Virus record (IMG/VR): IMGVR_UViG_3300050343_000117
Location: 1 to 64,000 of that record
DNA length: 64,000 nt
Strand: one strand, 5' to 3'
From: a virus
Part shown: positions 3,349 through 50,005 of the stretch, in pieces
Layout: each line of letters opens with the position of its first letter
Position numbering within the stretch: position 1 is the first letter of the stretch
Notes under the pieces: model-generated
Databases searched by the model: none
The model's input: only the letters and a program-made list of their open reading frames with translations
What the model was told of the DNA's origin: nothing
Made by a program: the position numbers and the translations under genes

Positions 3349-3356
3349 TATTTATA
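3349..3356 (-). promoter_or_regulatory. T4-type late promoter TATAAATA
   Basis: Exact TATAAATA on the minus strand in an intergenic gap. Confidence 0.75.
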
Positions 3357-3364
3357 CGAATTAA

Positions 3365-3684
3365 TTACCAAGCTTTGCACGACCAGTATCGCGCTTTCCA
3401 CTTCGGGCCAGGATCAGAACAATTATGTCTGGCACTGAAAACTTTTTCGACGAGCAGGGTTGTCTCTTTTGATTTCCATATTTGGATCACCGAATGAAAC
3501 CTTGACGACATTACCCTTCTCGTTCTTTGTATATACGTAGAACTTCTTAGAACCACCACGTACAGGTTTGTTCAAAGTAACTTTTCTTACCTTGATACTC
3601 TGCTTCGGTCAGTTCTAACTCTTCGTCGAGAGACTTACACGCCTCACAACACCCTTCTTCTACGTACTGTTTAAACTTTTTCAT
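3365..3684 (-). CDS. Small basic Cys-containing probable head protein (frameshifted)
   Basis: MKKFKQYVEE...AEYQGKK...KVSFGDPNMEIKRDNPARR...ARHNCSDPGPKWKARYWSCKAW, assembled across indels. Confidence 0.65.
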
Positions 3685-4060
3685 TTTGCAAGTAATGCCT
3701 TTGCTTTGGCGTACGATCGTGGAAAGCGAATGTACGAGACTTACCGTCTTTTTCGTCCTTGACCACATAACCAGATTTGGTCATCTTAGTGATCTTCGCC
3801 ATTCCCATTCTCTTATGCGCCCATTCCTTTAGTTGCGTATACGGTAGTTTTCGTAGTCAATTCGACTCCTTCTTCAAGTTCAATGAACCTTTATCTCTGC
3901 GCCTTTACTCTTTACTGCTTTTTTGAATTGCACATTTAAGTTTTTGCATCACCACGAGTTCCTCTGATCTTGAAGGAGCCTCTGAATCCGTGACAAGACC
4001 CCCATGCCTTTAGTTGCAAGCTTTGTACCAATTTCAGATGGTTTTGCGGTACTGTTTTCA

Positions 4061-4561
4061 TCAAGTCGAACTTAATATTAGTTTCTGAACTGATTCCTCT
4101 AACCCTTCACGCATAAGTTTACCACCTTTCACTCTGAATCCGTTATCTTTTAGGATTTTAGTAATAGTGGTCCTCTTTACCAAGTCGTCCATATCCTTGA
4201 GCAACTTAGTCAAACCCATGAATGCTTTATCCTGTACACTTAAAGAGGAATTCATAAACATAACACGTGCGAATGCAGCGGCCTTCTCGAACTCAATACC
4301 CTTTTTCTTATGTTTCAAGAGTTCATTAGATATCTTTTCAAAATCTGCGGCTTCATCAAGTTCAACTGACTCCTTTACAGGTTTGCCGTTTTTAGAAATG
4401 ATACCCTTGTATCCTTCCTTTTCCTTATCGGCAAGGAATTTCTTGGCGTATGTCAATAGGTGAAACGGCATCGTACGAATAGGTCCTTTCTTTGACATTG
4501 CGTACTTCACCACAAACTTATCTTTATTTGCGGATTCTCTTAGTTCAAAAAAATCTTTCAC
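4061..4561 (-). CDS. Probable internal head protein; likely continues to about 3690 via frameshifts
   Basis: Starts MKDFFELRES; contains ESVELDEA and EGLEES prohead-protease-type spacers. Confidence 0.55.
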   Translation of the reverse strand: MKDFFELRESANKDKFVVKYAMSKKGPIRTMPFHLLTYAKKFLADKEKEGYKGIISKNGKPVKESVELDEAADFEKISNELLKHKKKGIEFEKAAAFARVMFMNSSLSVQDKAFMGLTKLLKDMDDLVKRTTITKILKDNGFRVKGGKLMREGLEESVQKLILSST

Positions 4562-4562
4562 T

Positions 4563-4745
4563 TTAACTTCCTCTTGATGCGCCTCGAAATACCTTAGATG
4601 GAGCGCGGTTTGTATTATTTAATTTGAGACTGGGGCCTTGCGACCCCGTCATGTTAAACTTATTATTTTCAGAACTAGTAGACTGCAACCTTTCTCGTTT
4701 CTCTTGAGACATCTTTTTGTTGCGAGGTTTCTTAGTCTTACTCAT
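4563..4745 (-). CDS. Small basic hypothetical protein
   Basis: 60-aa K/R-rich ORF with an AAGGA RBS. Confidence 0.5.
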   Translation of the reverse strand: MSKTKKPRNKKMSQEKRERLQSTSSENNKFNMTGSQGPSLKLNNTNRAPSKVFRGASRGS

Positions 4746-4815
4746 ATTTATTCCTTATTTTAGACGGTCTTGTGCAGACCGCCTTGCTTCTCTTATTTCA
4801 GTAAACCTTTTCATG

Positions 4816-6991
4816 TTATCCTACTGCGACCGATTCACCGAACGTAGCATATTCACCAGCATCAAACGCGGTTAGTTTGGTTGGTTGCGCAGATAGATCA
4901 CTGGCATCGTAGACATAGACTGAACCACTTCGATCTCCATTGTCGTCGTCCTCTTCGGCACCAACAACAATAGTATTACGGAAAGCATCAAGGGAACCTC
5001 CGAATTTATCACCCGAAGCACCATCAAACGCAGATAGTTTAGTCGGTTGAGCAGATAGATCATTTGCATCATAAACGTATACTGAGCCAGGTCCAGGCCA
5101 CCCCGCATCACCTTCATACCAAGCACCCACAATAATCTTATCAGAGGTGGTAGCAACCGTAATCCCGAAGTTATCATCCGAAGTACCATCAAACGCGGTT
5201 AGTTTGGTTGGTTGCGCAGATAGATCATTTGCATCATAAACGTATACTGAATCCGGAAGTTATCTCCGATGTTGTCGATACGAGTATCTCATTCCAACCA
5301 TGACCTAGATCGGTATACCCAGAAAAGCACCATTGTTACTGTTAACACCAGAGGAACTTACAAAGATGTAGTTACCTGCAACTTCAATATCTCCAGTTCC
5401 GAAGTTGTCATTTCTTGGGCCTGTTACTTCTTTGATAAGAGACCCGTCTTCTTCATTAAAGATAAAGAATCTGCCGACAGATGTGTCCAGAGCTTCACCA
5501 ACGACAATTCTTCCAGAACCGTATGCAACATTACGACCAAATTGACCACCACCACCAGCGGTAGGTCTTTCGATAGACATCACTTCAGTTCCATCTTCTT
5601 CGAACAATTGGACACGTCCAGCGTTATTGTATGCACTAGAACCAACAAGGAATCTTGAATGATTTTCTTGCGTATCGACAGAGGAACCAAATTGATCACC
5701 CGCCGATCCATTTAATCGAGTAATTAAATCTGCCTGTATCGTCTGATAGGTTGAAAATACCAGTGCGACATCGGTTCTAGTACCTACGTAAAGTTTACCT
5801 TCACATTCTATTAACCATGCACCCACACCGTCTATTGAAGGACTATTGTTTTCTGCAATGAAACTGTAAACATGAGTCGTTGTTGTCCAGTGATTATTTG
5901 CACCATATGGCTACCATAGAATATAAGACCGCACCGTTTGCACCATTCGCATTAGCATTGTTGTGTGTTGATGAATCTGTGATTGTGAGTTATCTACTAT
6001 GACATAATCGTCAGTTACTATAAGTCTATTGCTTTGACCACCAAAGTCATTATTTGGTGGGTAAGGATAGTTGGATCCTAGAGACGAGTCTGTCCAGTAA
6101 TCCGTCATTCCCGATGTTAGTGCAAGGGCGCCAGGTCCATATATGGTGTTTGTTAGATTGATTTTACCATTATATGGAGAGTCTGGAGAAGAGTTTACGT
6201 GGCCTGGTCCTGCTGGACCATAACCAAATGCAACATATTCACCATCTGAAGTAGTGAAAGCACCGTATTCTGCGCCTCTGTAACCGTCGCCGATTTCTTG
6301 GTTTTGTTGGCCAGTTGGTAAACCATCAGCACCTAACGCGAATCTGTATACTTTACCTGAGTTTGGATAACCTCCTTGGTCATCATATGGCACACCTACC
6401 CAAAGACTACGTGGGTAAAGATCAGTTGGTTCCGTCAGTAACAGTCTTGGATTCTACCGAATGTCAAGAGATCCACCAGAGTCATTATCGACAGCAAGAA
6501 CCTGTTGAACATATACATATTCATAATATCTTGTAGCAAGTCGATTTCCGTCTAAAGATGCATTGTACTTCTTGCTGACCGAAGTTAGCGTCTGTTACGT
6601 TTGGTCCGTATAGTGTGCGTACTAAACTGCCAGTCGTTCTATCAAAAACTAAAATACGACCACTGTTATTGCCACCGCCAGTATAGTGCAGGTTACCTAC
6701 GAATATATTATCACCGGCCATAAAGATAGAAGAACCTACCATTTGACCACTCGGAGTAGGAAGAGTTGTGTTGTTACCATCCTGATTCATGATGAACGCT
6801 TGACCACCGAAGCTATTGCCGAACATTGCAGTAGTGGCTACAGTCCAAGTGCCTTCAGCTACTGGTGATGTAGATGATGTCGAGCCACTAGAAGATGATT
6901 CTGGTCCTACGTATGGTGGGTTGTCTGCGTCTACACCGGCAATTACTTGACCGGCATGAAACACCGCACCCGCTAAAATTTGATTTGCCAT
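4816..6991 (-). CDS. FG-GAP/integrin-alpha-like beta-propeller repeat protein (several frameshifts)
   Basis: ORFs 6521-6991, 5911-6393, 5305-5826 and 4816-5130 carry repeated xFGxxV...IVVGA...GSVYVY blades. Confidence 0.7.
4860..5227. repeat. Coding tandem repeats of FG-GAP blades
   Basis: 41-nt exact repeat at 4860-4900 and 5187-5227, plus a diverged copy near 5022-5062. Confidence 0.8.
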
Positions 6992-7013
6992 TTGTTCTAA
7001 ATTCCTTTAAGTT

Positions 7014-7286
7014 TTATGCTAAGTCTTTGTCATGGTTCAGGCCGCCTTTCTTCTTCTTGACGATGAAAGCGTTAACCCTTGCCATTCCCCATTGTTGTGG
7101 TGTGGTGCCTGGGCGGTGACCCGTTTTCCATGCCGCAACACCTCTATTATATACTTTACGCAAAGTGTCCGATGATATACCAGACTTCTTTGACTTCGCT
7201 GCGATACCATCTGGACCTTCATCAAGGTCTAGGGTATCATACATGCCGTATCTTTTTTCTTCAAGATATTTTTTAAATTTTATCAT
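7014..7286 (-). CDS. Small basic probable head protein (DUF5824-like)
   Basis: MIKFKKYLEE start; KSGISSDTLRKVYNRGVAAWKTGHRPGTTPQQWGMARVNAF. Confidence 0.6.
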   Translation of the reverse strand: MIKFKKYLEEKRYGMYDTLDLDEGPDGIAAKSKKSGISSDTLRKVYNRGVAAWKTGHRPGTTPQQWGMARVNAFIVKKKKGGLNHDKDLA

Positions 7287-8987
7287 GCCAAATCTCCTAA
7301 TCATTTTGCAAGTACTTTACATCATATCCAGTCCAAACTTACGAATTGCATTCAGCAGCATGCAAATTCATTGCAGACCTTCCATCTTATGGACTACCTT
7401 CTAATTCTTTCTTGATGTATTGCGCAACTTTAGTGTATTTATTCTTATTGATAGTCTTGGCTCCGATCTTATGCATTAAGTCTGGTACCCAGTTTTCTAG
7501 ACAACTCATTTTCTTCTGCAACACAATTAGGGACCATCTTGTTCCCTTTCTTTCTTCATACCAACTTCTTTGTACCCATCCCAACAATCTTCGTCGTACA
7601 TGTCCTTGAATGACTTGGTGTACTTGGATGGTTTAGTCTTGGCAGTTGTATCGCCAGGCGCTGGTTTGTATGCAGACTCATCATCGTCTGCCTTCTTACC
7701 ATGTTTCTTGAAGTGTGCATCACGTTTGACCTTGGTCGACTTTTCTAGTCCCTTATGGTAACGCGATGGTTGAGTACCTTCACGATCCTTTATATCTGGG
7801 TCCTGTGACTCGTACTTGATTTCAGGACTCGATGTCTTGAAGTCTTTCTTACGCATGATAGTTTTGTTCACTACTTCGAACTCACCGTTCTTATAGTTCA
7901 CCACAACAGGGAGATTTAGATCGGACTGCATATCTTTCAATACTGCTTCCGCATCTCCGTGTTTCTTTACGTCTTTGCCCTTATTCTTTGCGATCTTCTT
8001 AAACAACCGTTGGAGTTCTGTAACCTTGATAGCAGGGTCATTTCTCTTATCGTTCATACGGTCTGCGAAGTGTCGTGTAAATTCGATGTCGATGTCGAAC
8101 TTCTTCAACAAACGGTCACCGAACTTTTCTAAATCATTGAGTTGCTTTTGGGTCACGTCTTCGGAGATCAACTCCACAGACTCTAACCACTTGCGCATCT
8201 TCTTGCCATCGTTAGTCTCAACGATAACATAGTTCGCGCCTAGGATCGGATATGAGTAGCGACCTCTTCACTTTCTTTGATCACTACCATATCACCGACT
8301 TCGAACAGTTCGCCTTGCACGAACTTCTCTCGTGCTTCGGACACTGTCGCTAGTTCTATATGACTACGGAATTCGCTGGCTTCCTTCAGTCCCATACCCT
8401 TACGCACGTCGTTGAACAACTTACGTGTGTCTGGGTTAGACATTGACTTAGGAACCCCTTGCGAAAATGCAACGAAATCATTCTTTGATGCGTTCTCTCG
8501 TTGTTTAGAGGCAGACATGCCCTCAACTCCAACAGAATCCGGATCTCTCTTACCGGCGGATACTATTTTGATAGATTTGAAGTTGTAGAAACCGTGTCTG
8601 GCCTTTGTCCCATTGTACTTGTTCAACAGGACATCGAATTCTGTAATTCTGTCGTCACCTACAACCATAGTTACTGACTTATAACCTTGGTCATACAGTG
8701 CGACCATGGCGTTGATAGCGGTCTTGACCGACTTATCCACCATGATATTCCGTGCATGTTTCGGAAACATCTTACGTGTGTGTTTGATTTTGTCGGAGTA
8801 CGATAGCGGATTCTTCTTTGCGTCCTGTGACTGTGACGCAAATACTTTATAGTCTGCTTTCCCAGACTTCATGTGCTAACGCATCCATTACCTTGCCGTG
8901 ACCCATCGTAGGTGGATTCATACGACCAAACGTGAAATAGACTTCGCGTTCTTCTTCGACAAGGTATTGACTAAAATTCTTAATCAC
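7283..8987 (-). CDS. Multidomain protein: N-terminal HxGH (cytidylyltransferase-like) nucleotidyltransferase plus C-terminal virion-type modules (frameshifted)
   Basis: GTG at 8987 gives MIKNFSQYLVEE...FTFGRMNPPTMGHGKV, joining ORF 8240-8872 (KNPLSY, MVVGDDR, SAGKRDPDS, GMSASKQR) and ORF 7527-8198 (FTRHFADRMNDKRN, EDCWDGYKEVGMK). Confidence 0.7.
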
Positions 8988-9358
8988 TTTTTATCGCCCG
9001 CCTTTATTTTGTTTCTTTTACGTTCCATTTCTTGCTTACGAACGACTTTGATGAGTTTTCGGGCGGTGACGATCTAATTTTGACTGCATTGCCGGTTTGT
9101 CCAGTCGCTTCTCGATTTCTCTCTTACGAGCGACTGTCATCTCGGACTTATCTTGTCCTTTGGTAATCTTTGATACCAATGCGTTACGTGCTTGTTTACG
9201 TGCACGTTTCTTCAAGTGACATCCATTGATGCAGTTTTTCTTTCTGCACGTTTACGCGCCATGGCGATTCGTGCTTTGTTCTTTTTCATTCGCATCGCGA
9301 GTTTACGACGTTGTGTCATGTCGAGTACTTCCGATACCATGTCTTTAAATGACAGCAT
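8984..9358 (-). CDS. Very basic probable internal head protein (frameshifted; absent from the ORF track)
   Basis: MLSFKDMVSEVLDMTQRRKLAMRMKKNKARIAMARKRA, with a GAGG RBS. Confidence 0.55.
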
Positions 9359-9387
9359 GTCATTTTCCTCTATTGGTTTATTCCATA

Positions 9388-10607
9388 TTATCTACGGGCT
9401 GAATCCCAACCCTTTAATATATCGGATGAAAAGTTGTTGTATGAAAATTCCATACGGTCAACAAGTTTCACCGCGTCACCACCAAGTGTATCAATTGCAA
9501 CGTATCCTTCTTCACCAGTCACTTTGTAACCATTAGAAGTTTTCACGAAAGTATCAATCGATTTAAGTTTGTCCAAACTATTTATAAGTTTTAATTTGAC
9601 TAATACAATCAATTTTTGCAATTCAAACATCTTTATCTAGATTTGCCTTGTTTGTAGTAGAGAAAAAGTCCATCTCATCCTTCATTTCTGTTTCCAAGTG
9701 TCCTTACCACGTTGAGATTTCTTACTTGCAATCTCTTTTTTGTAGTAAGCTTGTCTATTACTTATCAATCCTCTAACATGCTTTCTTGAGTCTGGGAGTA
9801 AGGTACCTGCACGAACAAACGAGTTGTTGTAAGTCTCAATCGCCTGTGCAAGGTTCTGGTTATCTTCTAGCGCCTTCAGTGTTGTAGCAGATGTCTGTTT
9901 GAATAGACGACCGATTTGTGTCAGTAGATCATTGACTGATTTGGTTTCGCGCTCACTCATCGTCGCATTAGTCACGTCGGTCAACATCGCATCTTGTGAC
10001 CATACGTTTACAGAATTGCGAAACTTCGACACGTCCACACCGTATGATGCCTCGCATCGACTCAAAGTATTCCAGTGTATGTGGTGTGCCATACGATACC
10101 GATCTTAGCACTACGTACTTCTTTTGCTTGGTCGTAGGGTACTGCATATGCAATGGTGTTTGGATGAAACACACTGTACTTCTGACCATCGATGGTCTTG
10201 GTAGAGACATCACCCTTACCAAACAGGAAGTCCCCTTGGACAACACCCGTGATACCTAGGTCTGGTAGATACTTGAGAGCATCCTTCAACTTGGAGTTCA
10301 GATCGCCCGACGTATCATCGTCGATATCTGCGTCGGTCTTGTAGACCTTCGGGTTCTTGTTGAAGATACCTTTCTTCGCCACAAAGAACTCTCCGTCACT
10401 TGGATCTATACCGCAAAAGATTGCGGGCGCACCGTCCCATTTGACAGATACATTACCCGCACCCTTTCCCGCTAACATGTCTCGCAAACCACGTAACGCA
10501 TTGATAGCTTCACGTGTACCAGAAACTCCACCGTACAGGACTTTGTCCTCGATGTGAGTCATATGCGTATTCTTTTGCTCTGTAATGAAGTTTGCGAAGT
10601 TTTCCAT
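9388..10607 (-). CDS. DUF6267-like protein with ATP-dependent ligase/nucleotidyltransferase motifs (two frameshifts)
   Basis: MENFANFITEQKNTHMTHIED; SVKWDGAPA (motif I), VVQGDFLF (III), EEGYVA (IV), AVKLVDR (V). Confidence 0.65.
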
Positions 10608-11895
10608 TATGTACTCAGTGAATTATATTTGACTGCTAAATTGAAAAATTGTCCCAGTTTCTTTTGACCCGCGTTACCCGCTTTATTAGTTCGTATGGAC
10701 ATCTCCATAGTCACATTATCGTCTTTCGACTTTAGTTCAATGAACCAATTCTGTTTTGATGTGGTAGATGGATATGCACGAACGAACTTTACCATAGGCA
10801 AAAATACACCTAGTTCATCATTCGAAGTGATCTCTTCAAAACCGTCCTTTACCGCTTTGATAACTTTGGTAGGAACGTCGGGTGCGTCCCTCAATATTTC
10901 TGTCCGGATATAGTCTAGAGTCTTATCCTTATCTGTATTGAAAAGGTCAATGACAGCCTTACGACATGTCTCCAAGTGTTTGTCGTACAGTTCCTCATAT
11001 TTGGCACTGTCATCACGATTCAACTTTACTAGTAGTCCAGAAGTAACTCGTTTCTTGGATTTGTCATATGCACCACTAGGTGGCATACCTTGTATCTTAG
11101 AATAGACATCGGTGTGCAGTTGTCTGCGAAGGACACTTACATTACGTTGTTTCTTGAAGGACGTGAAGATAGGATTGACGTAGGTGTTGAGTTTAGGTTC
11201 TTTGGTCTTCTTACCACCCGCTTTGAGCGATACTCCCAACATTGCACCATCGGTAAACTCAATAAAGATATCGCCGGGATGGTTCTTAGGGACACCCGTA
11301 GGTTTTGCACGATATCCCCAATAGACCTGTTTGATTGATTTGTTCTTGTTTTCTTCTTGCAGATACTTGTAGACGCCCATCGCGTTCAACATCTTCTCAG
11401 TGAACTTGGAAGATTCAGACGCCTTCTGGATGGTATCGATTGCCGGCTTTGAGCATCGGACGGTTGAACACAGGTTAGAGTTTTAGGGTCCTGTTTCAAT
11501 AGGTGATCATAGAAATCTTGTACACTGGTCGTCATCGTGTAACCCGTTTCCCACGCGATGGCAGGGAACAGTTCTGTAATAGATGCGTTTAGAGTGGTCT
11601 CACCGATACCACCGGACTTAGGTTTTACCAGAATAACTACTTTGGTATCGAAACCAGAATCAATGAATATAGGGTCAACTGACTGCCCAGACTTCTCACG
11701 AACTTCTGCCTTGACACCCGCTTGGTTTAGATCACGAGCGATCTCATCCCTGTCCGTGAGACGGTCTTCTGACCGAACAACAAATACTGTGGTCTTACTG
11801 TTTTCGGATTTTTTCTCAACAGGAAGGTCCCCGAATACGTCCGGAAGATCAGACGTATTGACCTCTTCTGATAAGAACGACTTAAATGATAACAT
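10607..11895 (-). CDS. Probable head protein with PD-(D/E)xK-like nuclease motif (frameshift near 11450)
   Basis: MLSFKSFLSEE start; ASITELFP...HPGDIFIEF...GVSLKAG. Confidence 0.55.
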
Positions 11896-11941
11896 TGACC
11901 AAATTCCCTAGTAAGTTGACGTGGTTAGTGTACGATAACAC

Positions 11942-11949
11942 TATTTATA
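11942..11949 (-). promoter_or_regulatory. Late promoter TATAAATA heading the head-payload operon
   Basis: Exact consensus about 46 nt upstream of ATG 11895. Confidence 0.75.
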
Positions 11950-12664
11950 TGTCAAGGGAAGTTGAACTATTTTCTTCGTTATATTGAGCGATAGTTTCGC
12001 GGAGAGGACGCACCCAATTATCACGATGTTCGATAAACACCTGTGGTTCATGGTTGTCAACAGAGATAATCGTCACAAGTTGGGTGATAGGCATTCCAGT
12101 GCGTTCTTCCCACATAATTGCATAGGCAGACTCTTGCATGAAGTAGTTCTTAATCCAGTCAAGGCGTTTAGGTTTCATCGAAGTCTTGTAGTCAATGATA
12201 GACAATTTGCCATCGAAGACACCTACGCAATCCACACGACCAGCAACACCCAAATGGGTAGAGTACAGTGGTGCTTCTTGAGCATGGACAGTAGTCAGAC
12301 GTTCGTCAAGAATTGGTTTAATCTTTAGAAAAGAATCTATTAGATCCGGTGTACGTTTGGCCATCTTCGTCTCCCCATTGTCGGGGTTGATGGCAATATA
12401 CTTGTCATAGTCTGGATCGTTGTTGACATACTGTTCACAGATTTCGTGAACCGCAGTACCACGCGTAGATGCGCGATAGGAGACACGGTTTGCTTCTTTC
12501 TCACCGACACGTGCTCGCCATTTAGCAATGGAGTCACGAGACAGTATAGAGAGTACAGTAGTGATAGAAGGTAAGGTGATACCTTCGGGAGTTTCGTATT
12601 GACGACCAGTGTCCGTAGTTACGGCAGTCATCTCATTCAATTCCACAGGAACATGTTCAAACAT
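11945..12664 (-). CDS. PD-(D/E)xK (Cas4/RecB-like) exonuclease
   Basis: PSITTVLS, RGTAVHEICE, EAPLYS, AGRVDC, IIDYKTS, YFMQESAYA. Confidence 0.85.
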   Translation of the reverse strand: MFEHVPVELNEMTAVTTDTGRQYETPEGITLPSITTVLSILSRDSIAKWRARVGEKEANRVSYRASTRGTAVHEICEQYVNNDPDYDKYIAINPDNGETKMAKRTPDLIDSFLKIKPILDERLTTVHAQEAPLYSTHLGVAGRVDCVGVFDGKLSIIDYKTSMKPKRLDWIKNYFMQESAYAIMWEERTGMPITQLVTIISVDNHEPQVFIEHRDNWVRPLRETIAQYNEENSSTSLDI

Positions 12665-12692
12665 AATATAACCTAATCAATTTAATACTAGT

Positions 12693-12721
12693 ATTATACG
12701 TTATTAAAACGTATCTGTCAA
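12693..12721 (-). promoter_or_regulatory. Sigma70-type promoter
   Basis: TTGACA-17nt-TATAAT upstream of the exonuclease. Confidence 0.8.
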
Positions 12722-12760
12722 TAGTAAATCGTGACTATTTTTACCATACTAGTCATATAA

Positions 12761-12930
12761 GAATCCCCACAAGTACAGGGCTCCGAAGGGTACTTTATGT
12801 GTCGGTGAACCGTAACTAACTGCTTGGCATTTTCACATGCACGTTTTGAGAGATCGCAGTTTTAAGTTAGTGCGCGATGGTTGGCGCATTGTTCATCTCG
12901 TGTACCGAGCCCTGTACTGTGTGGGGAAAC
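12761..12930 (-). ncRNA. 170-nt rod-like structured RNA, 6S-RNA-like candidate
   Basis: Terminal arms CCCCACAcAGUACAGGGCUC / GAGCCCUGUACU-UGUGGGG; inner stems GGUAC/GUACC, UGAAC/GUUCA, ACUAACU/AGUUAGU; starts immediately after the tRNA-Ala CCA. Confidence 0.6.
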
Positions 12931-13006
12931 TGGTGGAGTTAGAGGGAATCGAACCCACGACCTTCTGGATGCAAACCAGACGCTCTCCCTACTGAGCTAT
13001 AACCCC
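12931..13006 (-). tRNA. tRNA-Ala(TGC)
   Basis: Cloverleaf, anticodon loop TT-TGC-AT, GTTCGA T-loop, encoded CCA. Confidence 0.95.
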
Positions 13007-13146
13007 AAAATCTTACTTTTCCTTATCTTTACCGAAGATTTTATCCCAGTTATCTCTACCTTGTTTTGATAACGTCTTGGACTGTATTGCGTCTCCGGTG
13101 ATGTCGTTTTTACTTACCATTTTGATGTCATTTATGATCAGTTTAT

Positions 13147-13222
13147 TGGAGCGGGTAGTCGGGTTTGAACCGACCGCCTCAACCTTGGCAAGGTTGCGCT
13201 CTACCAAATGAGCTATACCCGC
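13147..13222 (-). tRNA. tRNA-Gly(GCC)
   Basis: Cloverleaf, loop TT-GCC-AA, encoded CCA. Confidence 0.95.
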
Positions 13223-13229
13223 AATACAT

Positions 13230-14639
13230 TTAGTCGCATCCTAAGTCACGTCGTGATTCTTCATCATTATTAGTGACACACAAACCACTAGGTAATTCTT
13301 CCGGTACGTATCGCATCAACTCAGGATCGTACAGACTTGTCTCTAAGAACGTAACTAGGTTAGCAATTTCTTCTTCAGTCAAGTCAAGTGGTGTGAACCT
13401 ATAGTCTAGATCAACAATCTCTACTTGAGGATGTTGAGGTGATGCGGCAACTTTGTATCGTACTACATCTTCTACACTAGAGAACGACGCACCATGACCG
13501 AATACAGTAGTATCTATAAGGTTGTAAAGTGGTGGTACTTTGAACGCGAACTTATCCATATCGTCACCCGTAAAACCACCACGTCCCGCTTTGGTCGCTT
13601 CGTTTACATCACCAACTACGTCATCCCATATATCTAGGTCATGAAATCCAAGTGTCATAAACATCTCACTGGCAAGAGAACCGACAGGAGATGAAAGAGC
13701 GGGACCGTTATGACAACCGGCACACTGACCTTTACCGAAGAATACTTTCGCACCTTCTACTTCTTCTAGGGTCAATGCCTCTTCGTCACCTCGTAGGAAG
13801 TCTTGAAATGGTGCTTGGTTTGCGAGAATGGTTCTCTCGTATGCGGCAATTGCAAAAGATGCCGCTTCCAACATATCGTGCGGTTGTGACGTACCATATG
13901 CCGCTTCGAACATCATCTGATATTTCTCGTTGGTGGTTAGGATAGAACCCTCTTCCACATTCATACGGTGAACACCAAGTCCCGCAACTGCCTGTGTTTC
14001 TAGACCGGCGAGACTACGTAGGTTAGCCTCTTTGGGAGTACCTTCTGTAAAGTGACGATCCGGATCAATACCAACATTGACGATACCACCAATGACGTTA
14101 CCGAACTGACCATTCCACAACATGACTTCTTGGTAGGCAGTGTTCAGTACTGTAGGTGATGTGACGGGTTGTACATCGATGTCTTCGGGATTGACACCCT
14201 CAGCAATCATACGATGATCAAAACCGACACCACCTTCGCCAATACCTTGACGAATACCGGACTTGAATCCGTTCTGTGCGTTGTGACATGATGCACAAGA
14301 GAAAGTATCTTCCATACCCGCGATGTTGCCGTCGGTGATACCAGTCTCATGATAGATCAACTGTCCCAGTGCTACCTTCTCTGCGGTGATTGGGTTACTG
14401 GGGTCTTGGGGAATGTTTAGGAAGTCGTCACTCTCTGGGAGAATATATCCTTCATAGGAACCTGTTGGTGAGGTTCTGTCCATAATCTCACGGAGTTCAC
14501 CAATGGAGATTTCAAGTGCTGTCGGTTCTGGTACTGCCGGAGGCGCCACCGTCACTGGTTGTGGTGCGGAATCCGAAGTGCCACCCGAACAGGCGCTAAG
14601 GACGGTCGTGCATAATACTACAGATAGTAGGTTTTTCAT
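13230..14639 (-). CDS. Di-haem cytochrome c peroxidase (CcpA/MauG family) lipoprotein
   Basis: Lipobox LSA-C; NPITAEKVALGQLIY; two CxxCH (CASCH, CAGCH); PTVLN, WNGQF, FKVPPLYNL. Confidence 0.9.
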   Translation of the reverse strand: MKNLLSVVLCTTVLSACSGGTSDSAPQPVTVAPPAVPEPTALEISIGELREIMDRTSPTGSYEGYILPESDDFLNIPQDPSNPITAEKVALGQLIYHETGITDGNIAGMEDTFSCASCHNAQNGFKSGIRQGIGEGGVGFDHRMIAEGVNPEDIDVQPVTSPTVLNTAYQEVMLWNGQFGNVIGGIVNVGIDPDRHFTEGTPKEANLRSLAGLETQAVAGLGVHRMNVEEGSILTTNEKYQMMFEAAYGTSQPHDMLEAASFAIAAYERTILANQAPFQDFLRGDEEALTLEEVEGAKVFFGKGQCAGCHNGPALSSPVGSLASEMFMTLGFHDLDIWDDVVGDVNEATKAGRGGFTGDDMDKFAFKVPPLYNLIDTTVFGHGASFSSVEDVVRYKVAASPQHPQVEIVDLDYRFTPLDLTEEEIANLVTFLETSLYDPELMRYVPEELPSGLCVTNNDEESRRDLGCD

Positions 14640-14682
14640 AATATAAGAGCCTCTCAAATACTCTTTTTCAAGTTAGAAAGGA

Positions 14683-14712
14683 ATTATACTATAAAATATG
14701 AGGACTTGTCAA
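14683..14712 (-). promoter_or_regulatory. Sigma70-type promoter of the peroxidase gene
   Basis: TTGACA-18nt-TATAAT. Confidence 0.7.
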
Positions 14713-14722
14713 GGGTAAATGG

Positions 14723-15409
14723 TTATTTATTTTTAACTCGTTTGGTCGCCTGCTTCTCTGCATCAATCCACTTCTGTGCCTTCTTAGAGACAGGTTTGTC
14801 AGTGAACTTCTTAGCATCACGGAATGCAGTTAGAGTTTCTTTCTCGTAGTCTTTACCTTCAGAGTTATCTACAACCAAGAAGTTAGGTTTACCAAACATA
14901 CGTTGGAACTTACCGATATTGCGTTGTACTGCTTTCCAATACTCAGTAACACCTTTCTCGCCTAGGGTACGAGCACGTTTTGCATCACGGCTGATAGCAG
15001 TATCAAGGTCTGTGTTTACGAAAATCATTGCGACATCGTAACCCATGGCCTTTACTTTCTTTGCCTGTTCAGCAATTTTATCTGGGTCTTTACCAGTACC
15101 ATCTACTACGAGACCAAGACGACCTTTCAGATAACGCTCTTCCCTTTTCCCTGTAAGCTTCTTTGCCTTACCACGGAGTTCTTGTCCTTTCGGAGAGAAG
15201 ATGTTGTCCGGAGTCATATCCATATCAACCTTCTTCATAGCAGCTTCGAATGCGTCATCTGAGTTGACAACCTTGTAACCCATAGAAGTCAGACCTGTCT
15301 TACCGACGATGAATGACTTACCAGAACCTGGCCCACCCGCAAGAAAGATTGCCTTGAAGATTGCTGGATCGTTTACGCCTTCGTCTAAGAATGTTTTAAA
15401 AGATTTCAT
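14723..15409 (-). CDS. P-loop kinase (AAA_33 / zeta-toxin / PNK-like)
   Basis: MKSFKTFLDE start; Walker A GGPGSGKS, VNSDD, LVVDGT, lid RDAKRAR. Confidence 0.8.
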   Translation of the reverse strand: MKSFKTFLDEGVNDPAIFKAIFLAGGPGSGKSFIVGKTGLTSMGYKVVNSDDAFEAAMKKVDMDMTPDNIFSPKGQELRGKAKKLTGKREERYLKGRLGLVVDGTGKDPDKIAEQAKKVKAMGYDVAMIFVNTDLDTAISRDAKRARTLGEKGVTEYWKAVQRNIGKFQRMFGKPNFLVVDNSEGKDYEKETLTAFRDAKKFTDKPVSKKAQKWIDAEKQATKRVKNK

Positions 15410-15440
15410 TGTAATAGTATCTGTTGATGGTAGTTGTATG

Positions 15441-15448
15441 TATTTATA
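15441..15448 (-). promoter_or_regulatory. Late promoter TATAAATA for the kinase gene
   Basis: Exact consensus about 31 nt upstream of ATG 15409. Confidence 0.75.
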
Positions 15449-15456
15449 CAAAAAAA

Positions 15457-15547
15457 TGGCCGAGGGATAGGGATTCGAACCCTAGATACGCTATTAACGT
15501 ATGCCAGTTTTCAAGACTGGTGCATTCAACCGCTCTGCCATCCCTCG
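15457..15547 (-). tRNA. tRNA-Ser(TGA)
   Basis: Long variable arm, loop CT-TGA-AA, CCA. Confidence 0.95.
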
Positions 15548-15564
15548 TTAATTTTTATACTTTC

Positions 15565-15641
<77 letters not shown>

Positions 15642-15650
15642 GTAGAAAGT

Positions 15651-15725
15651 TGGCTGGGGTGGAAGGACTCGAACCTACGAATGACGGGATCAAAACCCGT
15701 TGCCTTACCACTTGGCGACACCCCA
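15651..15725 (-). tRNA. tRNA-Gln(TTG)
   Basis: Loop TT-TTG-AT, CCA. Confidence 0.95.
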
Positions 15726-15792
15726 AACCTGTTTGCTCTACTGGGCACCACTCATTCAGTTATTTAGTAAGGGGAATGAGACCCTTATTCCT

Positions 15793-15869
15793 TGGTCGGG
15801 AATGTAGGATTTGAACCTACGACCCTTCGCTCCCAAAGCGAATGCGCTACCAGACTGCGCTAATCCCCG
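15793..15869 (-). tRNA. tRNA-Pro(TGG)
   Basis: Loop TT-TGG-GA, CCA. Confidence 0.95.
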
Positions 15870-15874
15870 TACAA

Positions 15875-15948
15875 TAAAGGAGCAGTTTTCCACATACTCA
15901 GGTGACGGGCGTAACGACCAGAGTGAGTTTAGAGTCATCTCAAGACTA
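15875..15948 (-). ncRNA. Candidate structured RNA in tRNA spacer (manA-motif-like)
   Basis: GUCUUGAGAUGACUCUAAACUCACUCUGGUCG... resembles, from recall, the 5' part of phage manA RNAs; hairpin GAGUA...UGCUC. Confidence 0.35.
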
Positions 15949-15950
15949 AA

Positions 15951-16034
15951 TGGTGGGGAGAGGTGGATTCGAACCACCGAAGCTCTCGCGTCAGATTTAC
16001 AGTCTGATCCATTTGACCGCTCTGGAACCTCCCC
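15951..16034 (-). tRNA. tRNA-Tyr(GTA)
   Basis: Loop CT-GTA-AA, long variable arm, CCA. Confidence 0.95.
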
Positions 16035-16039
16035 GATAT

Positions 16040-16252
16040 TTAGTCGAGGATAATCTCCTCTCTTTTCTTCTTAGCGGGTTGACGAATACCAAGATAAGTT
16101 TCGAGAATCTCGATCTCATTATCCTTACGCTTCTGCCATTGTTGCTCAGTTCGAGCAACCCCTTTCTTACTAGTCTTCTCAAAGAACTTAGAACCTTTGA
16201 GTCGTTCGAGTGCACCTTCACGTCGGTGCTTGATTACATGCTTTCCTCTCAT
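16040..16252 (-). CDS. Small basic hypothetical protein
   Basis: ORF between tRNAs with AGGA RBS; RREGALERL motif. Confidence 0.55.
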   Translation of the reverse strand: MRGKHVIKHRREGALERLKGSKFFEKTSKKGVARTEQQWQKRKDNEIEILETYLGIRQPAKKKREEIILD

Positions 16253-16273
16253 AAACTATCCTTTCTATAAAGT

Positions 16274-16350
16274 TGGCGGAGCGGACGGGACTCGAACCCG
16301 CGACCCCCGGCGTGACAGGCCGGTATTCTAACCAACTGAACTACCGCTCC
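16274..16350 (-). tRNA. tRNA-Asp(GTC)
   Basis: Loop CT-GTC-AC, CCA. Confidence 0.95.
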
Positions 16351-16355
16351 AATAA

Positions 16356-16733
16356 TTATGGTTTCAATCCTTTTTTACCTTGGTGGTATCTTCCCCAGAT
16401 ACAGTGAGCAACTTCATGCCCAATCAACTCTGGTTCCCATTGCCACTCAGGGTCTTTAATATAAACTGTACACTCACCCGTTGACGGAATCCATAGAGTA
16501 AACGCACTCACCGAATCCCACTTTACACCTAACTTTTTCTTACGAGCAGAGTTGTACTCAGCTTGGTTCTTCAACAAAACAAAGTTAACCTTTGGGCTTA
16601 GATTCTCATATTCCTTTACAAGGAACTTAAAGTCATCCGCACCATAACGATATGTGTTAGTTACACCACTTGAGGCACAACCGCCTAAAACTAAACTAAC
16701 TATTATCGTGAACGTGTAGTTGAATAAGCGCAT
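16356..16733 (-). CDS. Putative lipoprotein with HExxH zincin motif
   Basis: LGG-C lipobox; GHEVAHC; start codon uncertain. Confidence 0.55.
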   Translation of the reverse strand: MRLFNYTFTIIVSLVLGGCASSGVTNTYRYGADDFKFLVKEYENLSPKVNFVLLKNQAEYNSARKKKLGVKWDSVSAFTLWIPSTGECTVYIKDPEWQWEPELIGHEVAHCIWGRYHQGKKGLKP

Positions 16734-49345: not shown

Positions 49346-50005
49346 TTATGTTTTAGATTTGATTAACGAGAGGAAATTCTTAAACTCACGAATTTGCACT
49401 TCTGGACGATGTGCAATCGGCGCTTGCTTGATTTCAGTCTCTATCTCTTCAATGACTTGAGGTTGAAGTATACCATTATTCCATACCCAGTCAACACCTT
49501 CCATAATCCCATTAACGAAAGCTTCAGGTGCACTAGGGTCCTGTACAATATCTACAGTATTCAGAATAAAGTCTTCTTTGACGTACATAATGCCGCCTTT
49601 ACTCTCAAGACTTCCCATACCACGAGTTGACACTCCTAATTGAACACCACCCTCTAAGAGACCTTTTACGATCTTTCCCATAGGGGTATCTAATATTTGT
49701 GCCTTTCCGACCACATCATTTCCCTCAAGTTTGAGGTCTGTGATGAGATGCGAAACTTTATCCAAGTTAACGGTTGGTCCTTCAGGGTGATTGAGTTCCC
49801 CTACAGCACGTTTCTTGCTAACTTGGTCTTCAACGTATTTATTTACCGCATTCTCCATAATGGCCTTTGGGTAAATACGTCCGTTACGATTCTTTTTGTC
49901 TGCTTGCGCAAATACACCTTCAATGACGAAATTTTTCTCACCATTCTCTTTAGCTTCGACGATACACTGAACGTCGTTTTCTACGTATTCGCTAATCAGT
50001 TTCAT
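49346..50005 (-). CDS. 21: Prohead protease gp21
   Basis: NRNGRIYP, GELNHP, GVSTRGMGSL, DIVQDPSAP. Confidence 0.95.
   Translation of the reverse strand: MKLISEYVENDVQCIVEAKENGEKNFVIEGVFAQADKKNRNGRIYPKAIMENAVNKYVEDQVSKKRAVGELNHPEGPTVNLDKVSHLITDLKLEGNDVVGKAQILDTPMGKIVKGLLEGGVQLGVSTRGMGSLESKGGIMYVKEDFILNTVDIVQDPSAPEAFVNGIMEGVDWVWNNGILQPQVIEEIETEIKQAPIAHRPEVQIREFKNFLSLIKSKT

Follow-up and report, generated by a model that had tools for sequence, protein, structure and literature searches.

In the first 64,000 nucleotides (hereafter the window) of the IMG/VR virus record IMGVR_UViG_3300050343_000117, seven probably late genes encode proteins that begin with a leader matching the capsid-targeting sequence (CTS) by which phage T4 loads its head, and so the phage probably injects ready-made enzymes together with its DNA. 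The record, 137,471 bases long and rated 83% complete, comes from a marine, T4-like phage; the closest match to it in GenBank is Phage C48C1, of 156 kb (77.5% identity across 38% of the 8.6 kb queried). On balance we favor the interpretation that these genes form a late capsid-cargo block, loaded through the leader, that includes a divergent ligase-like protein of the family DUF6267. The region would then be a late-transcribed counterpart of the internal-protein loci that lie on either side of the T4 tRNA genes, but loaded with enzymes. An earlier note on this DNA had proposed that three of the gene products, a ligase-fold protein, a polynucleotide kinase (Pnk)-like kinase and a nucleotidyltransferase, make up a virion-delivered kit for RNA repair and/or nucleotide restoration.

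The seven genes start at positions 15409, 11895, 10607, 9358, 8987, 7286 and 3684 and, like every gene discussed here, lie on the minus strand; their products begin M-x-x-F-x-x-(F/Y/M)-(L/I/V)-x-E. They are as follows.

14723 to 15409, minus strand: P-loop kinase, 228 aa, leader MKSFKTFLDE, intact in the window (Pfam AAA_33, Zeta_toxin)
10607 to 11895, minus strand: 428-aa protein (phrog_2496), leader MLSFKSFLSE, split by two extra bases near 11446-11448
9388 to 10607, minus strand: DUF6267 candidate ligase-like covalent nucleotidyltransferase, 406 aa when intact, leader MENFANFITE, in three pieces in the window
8990 to 9358, minus strand: small basic protein of about 123 aa (phrog_23027), leader MLSFKDMVSE, frameshifted in the window
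7283 to 8987, minus strand: modular nucleotidyltransferase protein, 564 aa when intact, frameshifted in the window
7014 to 7286, minus strand: 90-aa DUF5824 protein, leader MIKFKKYLEE (DUF5824 E 1.6e-19, with the homologue from locus L005)
3350 to 3684 (end approximate), minus strand: small DUF5824-type gene, leader MKKFKQYVEE, frameshifted

Six of the leaders are in exact register and that of the gene at 8987 is shifted by one extra residue; the leader of the gene at 9358 has Met at position 7. Start codons across the 137-kb genome yielded nine matches to the leader motif, whereas 30 codon-shuffled versions gave 1.2 on average and never more than 5. Six of these nine fall within 3684-15409, where the Met7 gene at 9358 makes a seventh. 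The T4 internal proteins IPI and IPIII begin MKTFKEF and MKTYQEFIAE, respectively. A review on the assembly of the T4 head reports that IPIII needs no more than its first 10 residues to be loaded, with residues 4 and 7 responsible for targeting and residues 8 and 10 for processing by gp21 (PMC9026906). F4, F/Y7, L/I/V8 and E10 of the window leaders are the four positions mapped in T4, and all match. The earlier note had ascribed a CTS-like start to each of its three enzymes, and this we could confirm, with the one-residue shift in the gene at 8987. By eye, the leader is present in all 129 N-termini listed for homologues of the nucleotidyltransferase, down to 36% identity, while of 119 DUF6267 representatives 51 have the strict leader, 25 start at the core and 43 are extended in other ways, often by variants.

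The enzyme expected to remove such leaders is encoded in the window as well.

49508 to 49936, minus strand: T4 gp21-type prohead protease (Peptidase_S77, E 4.7e-41; open frame of 222 aa)

Because this gp21-type prohead protease is encoded, we regard head assembly of the phage as T4-like. Transcription signals agree with late expression of the block. The motif TATAAATA, which we take to be the T4 late-promoter consensus, occurs 13 times in the window against 3.3 expected, every time on the minus (coding) strand.

3349, 9579, 11942, 15441, 35619, 36846, 46508, 46858, 50224, 50240, 54276, 60014 and 60026, minus strand: TATAAATA motif sites
15441 to 15448, minus strand: TATAAATA motif before the kinase gene, 31 nt from its ATG
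11942 to 11949, minus strand: TATAAATA motif 46 nt upstream of the ATG at 11895, heading the block 11895-7014

The distance of 31 nt to the kinase ATG recurs in six of nine related loci. One site (9579-9586) falls within DUF6267 and others occur near head genes. Within 6500-16500 the only two sigma-70 promoter matches of 12 out of 12 positions precede the genes for a leaderless exonuclease and a leaderless peroxidase; leaders accompany late motifs, and the early motif is never accompanied by a leader. The TATAAATA sites provide a ready map of likely late transcription units.

Published virion analyses bear on the same question. Liquid chromatography-mass spectrometry of CsCl-purified particles of cyanophage S-SZBM1 identified 30 proteins, which include the products of the cytidylyltransferase gene 140 and of gene 139 (PMC9146016). 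Gene 140 is the homologue of the window nucleotidyltransferase (35% identical, E 1e-48) and its product starts MRFRQFIIE; gene 139 has a tail motif in common with the window protein. A second paper reports the enzyme in virions of S-CREM2, cites NMNAT-like proteins in virions of S-CBWM1, S-SZBM1 and S-SCSM1, and suggests that such proteins are injected (PMC10665884). Four independent lines therefore support the virion delivery that the earlier note had proposed, namely the T4-matched leader, the putative late promoters, the gp21-type protease and the presence of nucleotidyltransferase homologues in virions. Packaging of DUF6267 and the kinase and cleavage of the leaders are inferred, as are all catalytic activities and substrates named below. 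The leader would bind the prohead core, the gp21-type protease would cut after Glu10, and the mature cargo proteins would exit the head together with the DNA.

Several points weigh against this interpretation. The leaderless DUF6267 protein of S-SZBM1, gene 141, is absent from the 30 virion proteins listed (PMC9146016). The S-CREM2 paper warns that abundant non-structural proteins may co-purify with virions, so that the virion detections may be contamination (PMC10665884). The late-promoter role of TATAAATA is transferred from T4, the evidence in this phage being the motif only, and the leader could serve another role. Under one alternative the leader is no packaging signal at all; it would be a binding motif for some other partner, or a translation-start context, and the proteins would be cytoplasmic late in infection. 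Its hydrophobic 4-7-8 spacing resembles clamp-binding (PIP-like) peptides too, and packaging in this phage is itself a prediction. We nevertheless consider this alternative quite improbable: all four T4-mapped positions match, Glu10 included; seven proteins with no other kinship carry the motif at precisely their N-terminal ends; leaders coincide with late-promoter motifs whereas leaderless neighbours have early ones; and the S-SZBM1 virion list contains the leader-like nucleotidyltransferase but not the leaderless DUF6267.

Capsid loading of this kind has its clearest counterpart in T4 IPI, IPII, IPIII and Alt, which are loaded through a CTS and trimmed by gp21. In common with those proteins are a leader of ~10 residues with aromatic positions 4 and 7, aliphatic position 8 and Glu10, a gp21-type protease gene, the late-promoter motif, genes that flank a tRNA cluster and a locus whose gene content varies among relatives. 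Unlike the small basic inhibitors of T4, the window cargo consists mostly of large predicted enzymes plus a modular protein, none of it is homologous to any T4 internal protein, and here both packaging and cleavage are predicted. The earlier note was right that the genes lie beside a tRNA cluster, with 8 of the 12 tRNA genes at 12931-37548 falling within 12931-16350. This adjacency proves little, because ipIII and ipI flank the tRNA cluster of T4 too (within T4 positions 66000-78000) in a layout like that of the window leader genes.

Three long genes (starts 11895, 10607 and 8987) are interrupted in the window by single-base indels. The cargo genes are intact in the natural population: contigs from four seawater/marine metagenome runs (four studies) lack the window indels at 7554, 8246/8254 and 8871 as well as those at 9637, 10053, 10068/10069 and 11446/11448, and, besides exactly two of these gaps, the window and two contigs of 1.4-1.6 kb are 0 or 1 letters apart. 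As the indels are absent from all four runs, the breaks, which the earlier note had already taken for indels, must be errors or private changes of this assembly. Among 80 related IMG/VR loci the three DUF6267 pieces match in a single frame wherever coordinates were compared, and all eight DUF6267 frames viewed at full length are open. Compared with a 95% identical relative there are 22 gap positions in 3.1 kb, and homopolymers are not their sole location. Folds and searches were accordingly run on intact homologues from L005 (N-terminal piece 94% identical). The assembly is error-rich across window positions 7200-11900; the kinase gene, by contrast, is identical to its L005 copy.

The DUF6267 protein is the cargo for which a ligase-like function is proposed. 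Its three pieces in the window match Pfam PF19782 (E 5.6e-64, 7.9e-10 and 2.8e-14), and the translation contains VSVKWDG, VVQGDFLFG, GEEGYVA and AVKLVDR, in which the motifs KWDG, QGDFLF, EGYV and VKLV named in the earlier note are all found, in order. Residues K56, D58, G59, D126, E367, G368 and K381 are invariant in 111 aligned members and ordered as ligase motifs I, III, IV and V, the assignment of residues to motifs having been made by pattern and not by superposition. K56, D58 and G59 are invariant also in a set of 88 sequences that includes short cyanophage forms, and N150 and Y154 (motif IIIa) are invariant too, in order between D126 (of QGD) and E367-G368. The family is large and unstudied: it comprises 2,546 clusters at 50% identity (E up to 0.001) and occurs in 467 phage records, mostly of Synechococcus and Prochlorococcus myoviruses with a few from phages of Pelagibacter, Methylophilales, Vibrio, Stenotrophomonas and Pseudoalteromonas, and no paper naming DUF6267 was found in the literature searched.

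AlphaFold modelled the 406-aa form and a 298-aa cyanophage form with high confidence (pLDDT 93.9 and 93.1, respectively), placing a helical bundle within a beta-rich core that it divides; in the DUF6267 model, disorder is confined to no more than the leader at residues 1-9. When the 298-aa form was compared with the PDB by Foldseek, the top match was the tRNA ligase 6n0t, and 20 of the 47 rows listed named tRNA, RNA or DNA ligases of several families, with another five being complexes that hold a ligase or a capping enzyme. Of the 50 PDB rows listed for the long form, the four that rank first by probability are DNA ligases, the only four there. In BFVD, once members of the family are set aside, the first match to bear a name is an RNA ligase, that of phage Atu_ph07 (E 7.6e-3, probability 0.97); capping enzymes and more RNA ligases come after it. 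At the sequence level, Pfam RNA_lig_T4_1 matches 4 of the 111 DUF6267 members weakly and always below its cut-off (best E 6e-4), and the best hhalign stretch sets EGYVA...K of DUF6267 on motifs IV and V of T4 Rnl1.

Set against a ligase assignment is the finding that no single structural or sequence match between DUF6267 and a ligase is significant. The best PDB Foldseek matches have E 0.13 and 0.18 and none reaches 0.001; phmmer and hmmsearch of the PDB with DUF6267 returned no ligase; and an hhalign comparison with 39 Rnl1 sequences reached no better than E 0.13, across 19 columns. The DUF6267 profile aligned singly with T4 Rnl1, Rnl2 and gp30 found nothing beyond the motif IV-V stretch, and a search of the protein Atlas returned unnamed viral clusters only. 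As to the ligase fold claimed by the earlier note, the motifs are present, and the structure prediction and Foldseek comparison that it proposed gave confident models and one-sided matches to ligases, but no significant single match. These results point weakly, though consistently, to a ligase-type fold. We infer from converging weak evidence that DUF6267 may be a very distant covalent nucleotidyltransferase with the architecture of an RNA ligase, a membership that is suggested rather than demonstrated.

Its closest likeness would be to RNA ligases of the Rnl1/Trl1 type. DUF6267 has a KxDG lysine but lacks the Arg found next in DNA ligases, its motif III is acidic and it has no OB domain; as in Rnl1, motif IV is EG(Y/F)V with a Lys 14 residues on (13 in T4 Rnl1). 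Its top Foldseek matches are tRNA ligases, and its weak Pfam matches are to RNA_lig_T4_1. Unlike these enzymes, it shows no significant sequence or profile similarity to them, it has, instead of a C-terminal domain, a helical bundle inserted between motifs IIIa and IV that measures 40 to 130 residues, and another residue stands in for the second Lys of motif V (VKLVDR). On this basis DUF6267 would be a very divergent covalent nucleotidyltransferase (KxDG, motifs III-V, helical insert, no OB) nearest to the Rnl1/Trl1 type, most likely nucleotidylated on Lys56, that seals or tags polynucleotide ends in the newly infected cell.

A different role for the same fold would be that of the DNA ligase of these phages, a non-orthologous replacement of T4 gp30 in joining Okazaki fragments, or in closing nicks or repairing damage of the incoming or replicating genome, with no part in counter-defence. 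A search for the ATP- and NAD-dependent DNA ligase families, in which the T4 positive control matched, found none of them in seven of nine DUF6267 records (G000, G001, G002, G003, C48C1, S-RIM2 and S-SZBM1), and this keeps the idea alive, although four of the seven records are incomplete (83-91%). In cyanophages DUF6267 adjoins the replication genes gp43, UvsX, gp41 and MazG, and DNA ligases are among its Foldseek matches. We consider this role unlikely. Stenotrophomonas phage DLP_6 and Pseudoalteromonas phage XG4 hold both DUF6267 and a canonical ATP-dependent ligase, and a late promoter and a leader do not suit a replication enzyme. Moreover, the OB-fold domain and motif VI of DNA ligases were not found in the 406-aa DUF6267 protein: just 25 residues, forming one helix, follow K381 of motif V, and an OB domain therefore has no room. 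All DNA ligases known to us have both the OB domain and motif VI. As for known RNA ligase families, RNA_ligase (PF09414) was absent from the five records searched; the corresponding genome search with RNA_lig_T4_1 was uninformative, its control having matched nowhere.

The nucleotidyltransferase is the more constant companion of DUF6267. The intact 564-aa protein consists, in order, of the leader, a TxGH/SxSKxR cytidylyltransferase-like domain, an SH3-like piece, the linker WLESVELISE, an unmatched module and a DUF5824-like tail. The earlier note had described an HxGH nucleotidyltransferase; the domain is as it said, but the motif in the gene at 8987-7283, FGRMNPPTMGHGK, is the TxGH variant of HxGH. 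T27, G29, H30, S158, K161 and R163 are invariant in 35 homologues. The intact homologue matches the PHROG 'cytidyltransferase' at 5.9e-72 and narrowly passes Pfam CTP_transf_like (22.2 bits versus a cut-off of 21). Searched against the PDB at E up to 10, its profile met no solved HxGH enzyme, NMNAT included; no NCBIfam model matches it, and the protein Atlas returned viral CTP_transf_like clusters only. The middle module (window 7794-8186) has no PDB or Pfam match. The enzyme is 39% identical to that of S-RIM2. The virion-associated NMNAT-like or cytidylyltransferase proteins of cyanophages S-SZBM1, S-CREM2, S-SCSM1 and S-CBWM1 resemble it in being homologous and in having a DUF6267 neighbour, and differ in that the window enzyme is fused to further modules (564 aa). 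In the parts available, the cyanophage papers record presence in the virion and discuss no loading mechanism, leader or DUF6267.

All 73 loci with room for both genes have the nucleotidyltransferase as the downstream neighbour of DUF6267, and the pair occurs also in S-RIM2, S-SZBM1 and the soil Stenotrophomonas phage DLP_6. The two are fused, in either order, in the representatives P0003, P0042, P0070, P0071, P0109 and P0119 and in S-PM2. The kinase is found in 9 of the 36 loci that have 6 kb or more upstream and in three of five near-complete related genomes, being absent from complete C48C1. Co-occurrence among related phages, the lack of which the earlier note had named as refuting its proposal, thus holds for DUF6267 and the nucleotidyltransferase and is only partial for the kinase. 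The TxGH nucleotidyltransferase heading the modular protein would accordingly seem a constant partner of DUF6267, and the kinase an optional extra cargo.

The kinase has a GGPGSGKS P-loop and a lid with R141, R145 and R147, all invariant in 22 close homologues, so that the earlier description of a P-loop kinase with an arginine lid is upheld. Its resemblance to a polynucleotide kinase is another matter. It matches Pfam AAA_33 (4.4e-11) and Zeta_toxin (8.7e-11) and the PHROG polynucleotide kinase (4.5e-7), and its P-loop and NSDD align with T4 Pnk at E 5e-4 over 46 residues in a single comparison. Among solved structures it comes nearest to adenylate kinases (E 0.005) and to the kinase of the zeta toxin, and T4 Pnk was not among these matches at E up to 1. 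Like T4 Pnkp it has a GxPGSGKS P-loop followed by N-x-D-D and an Arg-rich lid; unlike it, the window protein is the kinase domain alone, its 228 residues holding no phosphatase domain, its promoter is predicted to be late and not early, and adenylate kinase and the zeta toxin kinase match it just as well. Judged by sequence, nothing marks it as a Pnk in particular, since it resembles adenylate kinase at least as much as T4 Pnk.

These data bear directly on the proposal that kinase, DUF6267 and nucleotidyltransferase form one injected kit, healing and sealing tRNA after cleavage by anticodon nucleases, as T4 Pnkp and Rnl1 do, and/or rebuilding NAD+ against NADase defences. Several features speak for it: the P-loop and DD motif that the kinase has in common with T4 Pnk and its PHROG match, tRNA ligases as the top structural matches of DUF6267 with twelve tRNA genes nearby, and the NMNAT-like label that cyanophage papers give the nucleotidyltransferase (PMC10665884). 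In addition, P0001 encodes kinase and DUF6267 in one frame, as in the fungal Trl1 LIG-KIN arrangement (Foldseek match 9r3w). However, the junction in P0001 still holds a Met and a leader, so that P0001 may represent two neighbouring genes or a polyprotein cleaved at a later stage, and DUF6267 is also joined by ESV-type linkers to unrelated modules (P0004, P0121 and P0071). Since such unrelated partners are reached through the same type of linker, fusion reflects shared destination at least as much as shared pathway; the fusions look like shuffled capsid cargo on linkers, not pathway fusions. We had considered the fusions as evidence of a pathway and rejected this once the linkers and unrelated partner modules were seen.

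Other findings likewise tell against a kit. The kinase is missing from two of the five near-complete relatives, lacks a phosphatase domain and is closest, among solved proteins, to adenylate kinases. No NMNAT structure was matched by the nucleotidyltransferase profile, and T4 makes Pnkp and Rnl1 early whereas the promoters here appear late. A search of G000, G001 and C48C1 found no PNK3P-type 3'-phosphatase and no 2H phosphoesterase, whereas T4 matched weakly at pseT, short of the family cut-off; the healing pathway of T4 thus cannot be seen here in full. With the kinase optional and not specifically Pnk-like, and no 3'-end-healing enzyme found, a fixed three-enzyme kit is not supported, and we consider such an injected kit unlikely. 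The earlier note knew of no description of such a kit. In part this needs amending, as virion-borne NMNAT-like or cytidylyltransferase proteins are in print (PMC10665884, PMC9146016); the remainder we did not find either. CTS-directed loading and virion-borne cytidylyltransferase-like proteins are already known, while a link between the CTS and the virion cytidylyltransferase, the leader on DUF6267 and the kinase, and a ligase-like DUF6267 were not found in print, in a search that was thin on subscription journals.

Under the interpretation we favor, of leader-loaded late cargo with a divergent ligase-like DUF6267, a broader proposal can be made, tentatively and with the odds against it: DUF6267 may be a new family of polynucleotide ligases, carried in the capsid and injected by abundant marine T4-like phages including cyanophages, that could repair nucleic acid before phage genes are expressed, whether tRNA cut by the host or the phage's own nicked or sunlight-damaged DNA, with the T4 tag serving as a general address label for shuffled enzyme cargo across the T4 superfamily. 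If DUF6267 is a ligase, this would give a function to a gene that the majority of the searched T4-like cyanophage records contain, and such phages may owe to it their ability to manage without a canonical DNA ligase. The leader would offer a simple mechanism for the repeated, puzzling detection of 'cytidylyltransferase' in cyanophage particles. It would also predict other injected proteins from sequence alone, making the cargo of uncultured ocean phages readable.

The gene directly upstream of DUF6267 varies among relatives, and the 428-aa protein that occupies this position in the window is found there in only 4 of 80 loci. It is 38-40% identical to the gene at the same position in S-RIM2-type cyanophages, a pattern that suggests cassette exchange at the locus. 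The protein has no Pfam, NCBIfam or PDB match; its GDIFI...SLK might, at a guess, be PD-(D/E)xK-like.

The two leaderless genes preceded by sigma-70 matches are the following.

11945 to 12664, minus strand: Cas4-like PD-(D/E)XK exonuclease (PHROG exonuclease 4.6e-75, with the L005 homologue); sigma-70 match at 12721-12693
13230 to 14657, minus strand: di-haem cytochrome c peroxidase/MauG-like lipoprotein gene (Pfam CCP_MauG 4e-22)

The exonuclease is probably an early gene wedged among late cargo genes. The peroxidase gene lies between tRNA genes, has a perfect TTGACA-18-TATAAT at 14712-14683 and encodes a signal-peptide-like start; NCBIfam MauG-like models match it at 1e-23 to 1e-31, below their cut-offs. 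It occurs in 21 of 80 related loci and is an unusual auxiliary gene for a phage. Finally, beyond the cargo block lies the gene for a protein of 580 aa that matches no family (L005:13608-15347; about 5305-6991, minus strand, in the window), where it appears as three open reading frames (6521-6991, 5911-6393 and 5305-5826), probably through indels again.

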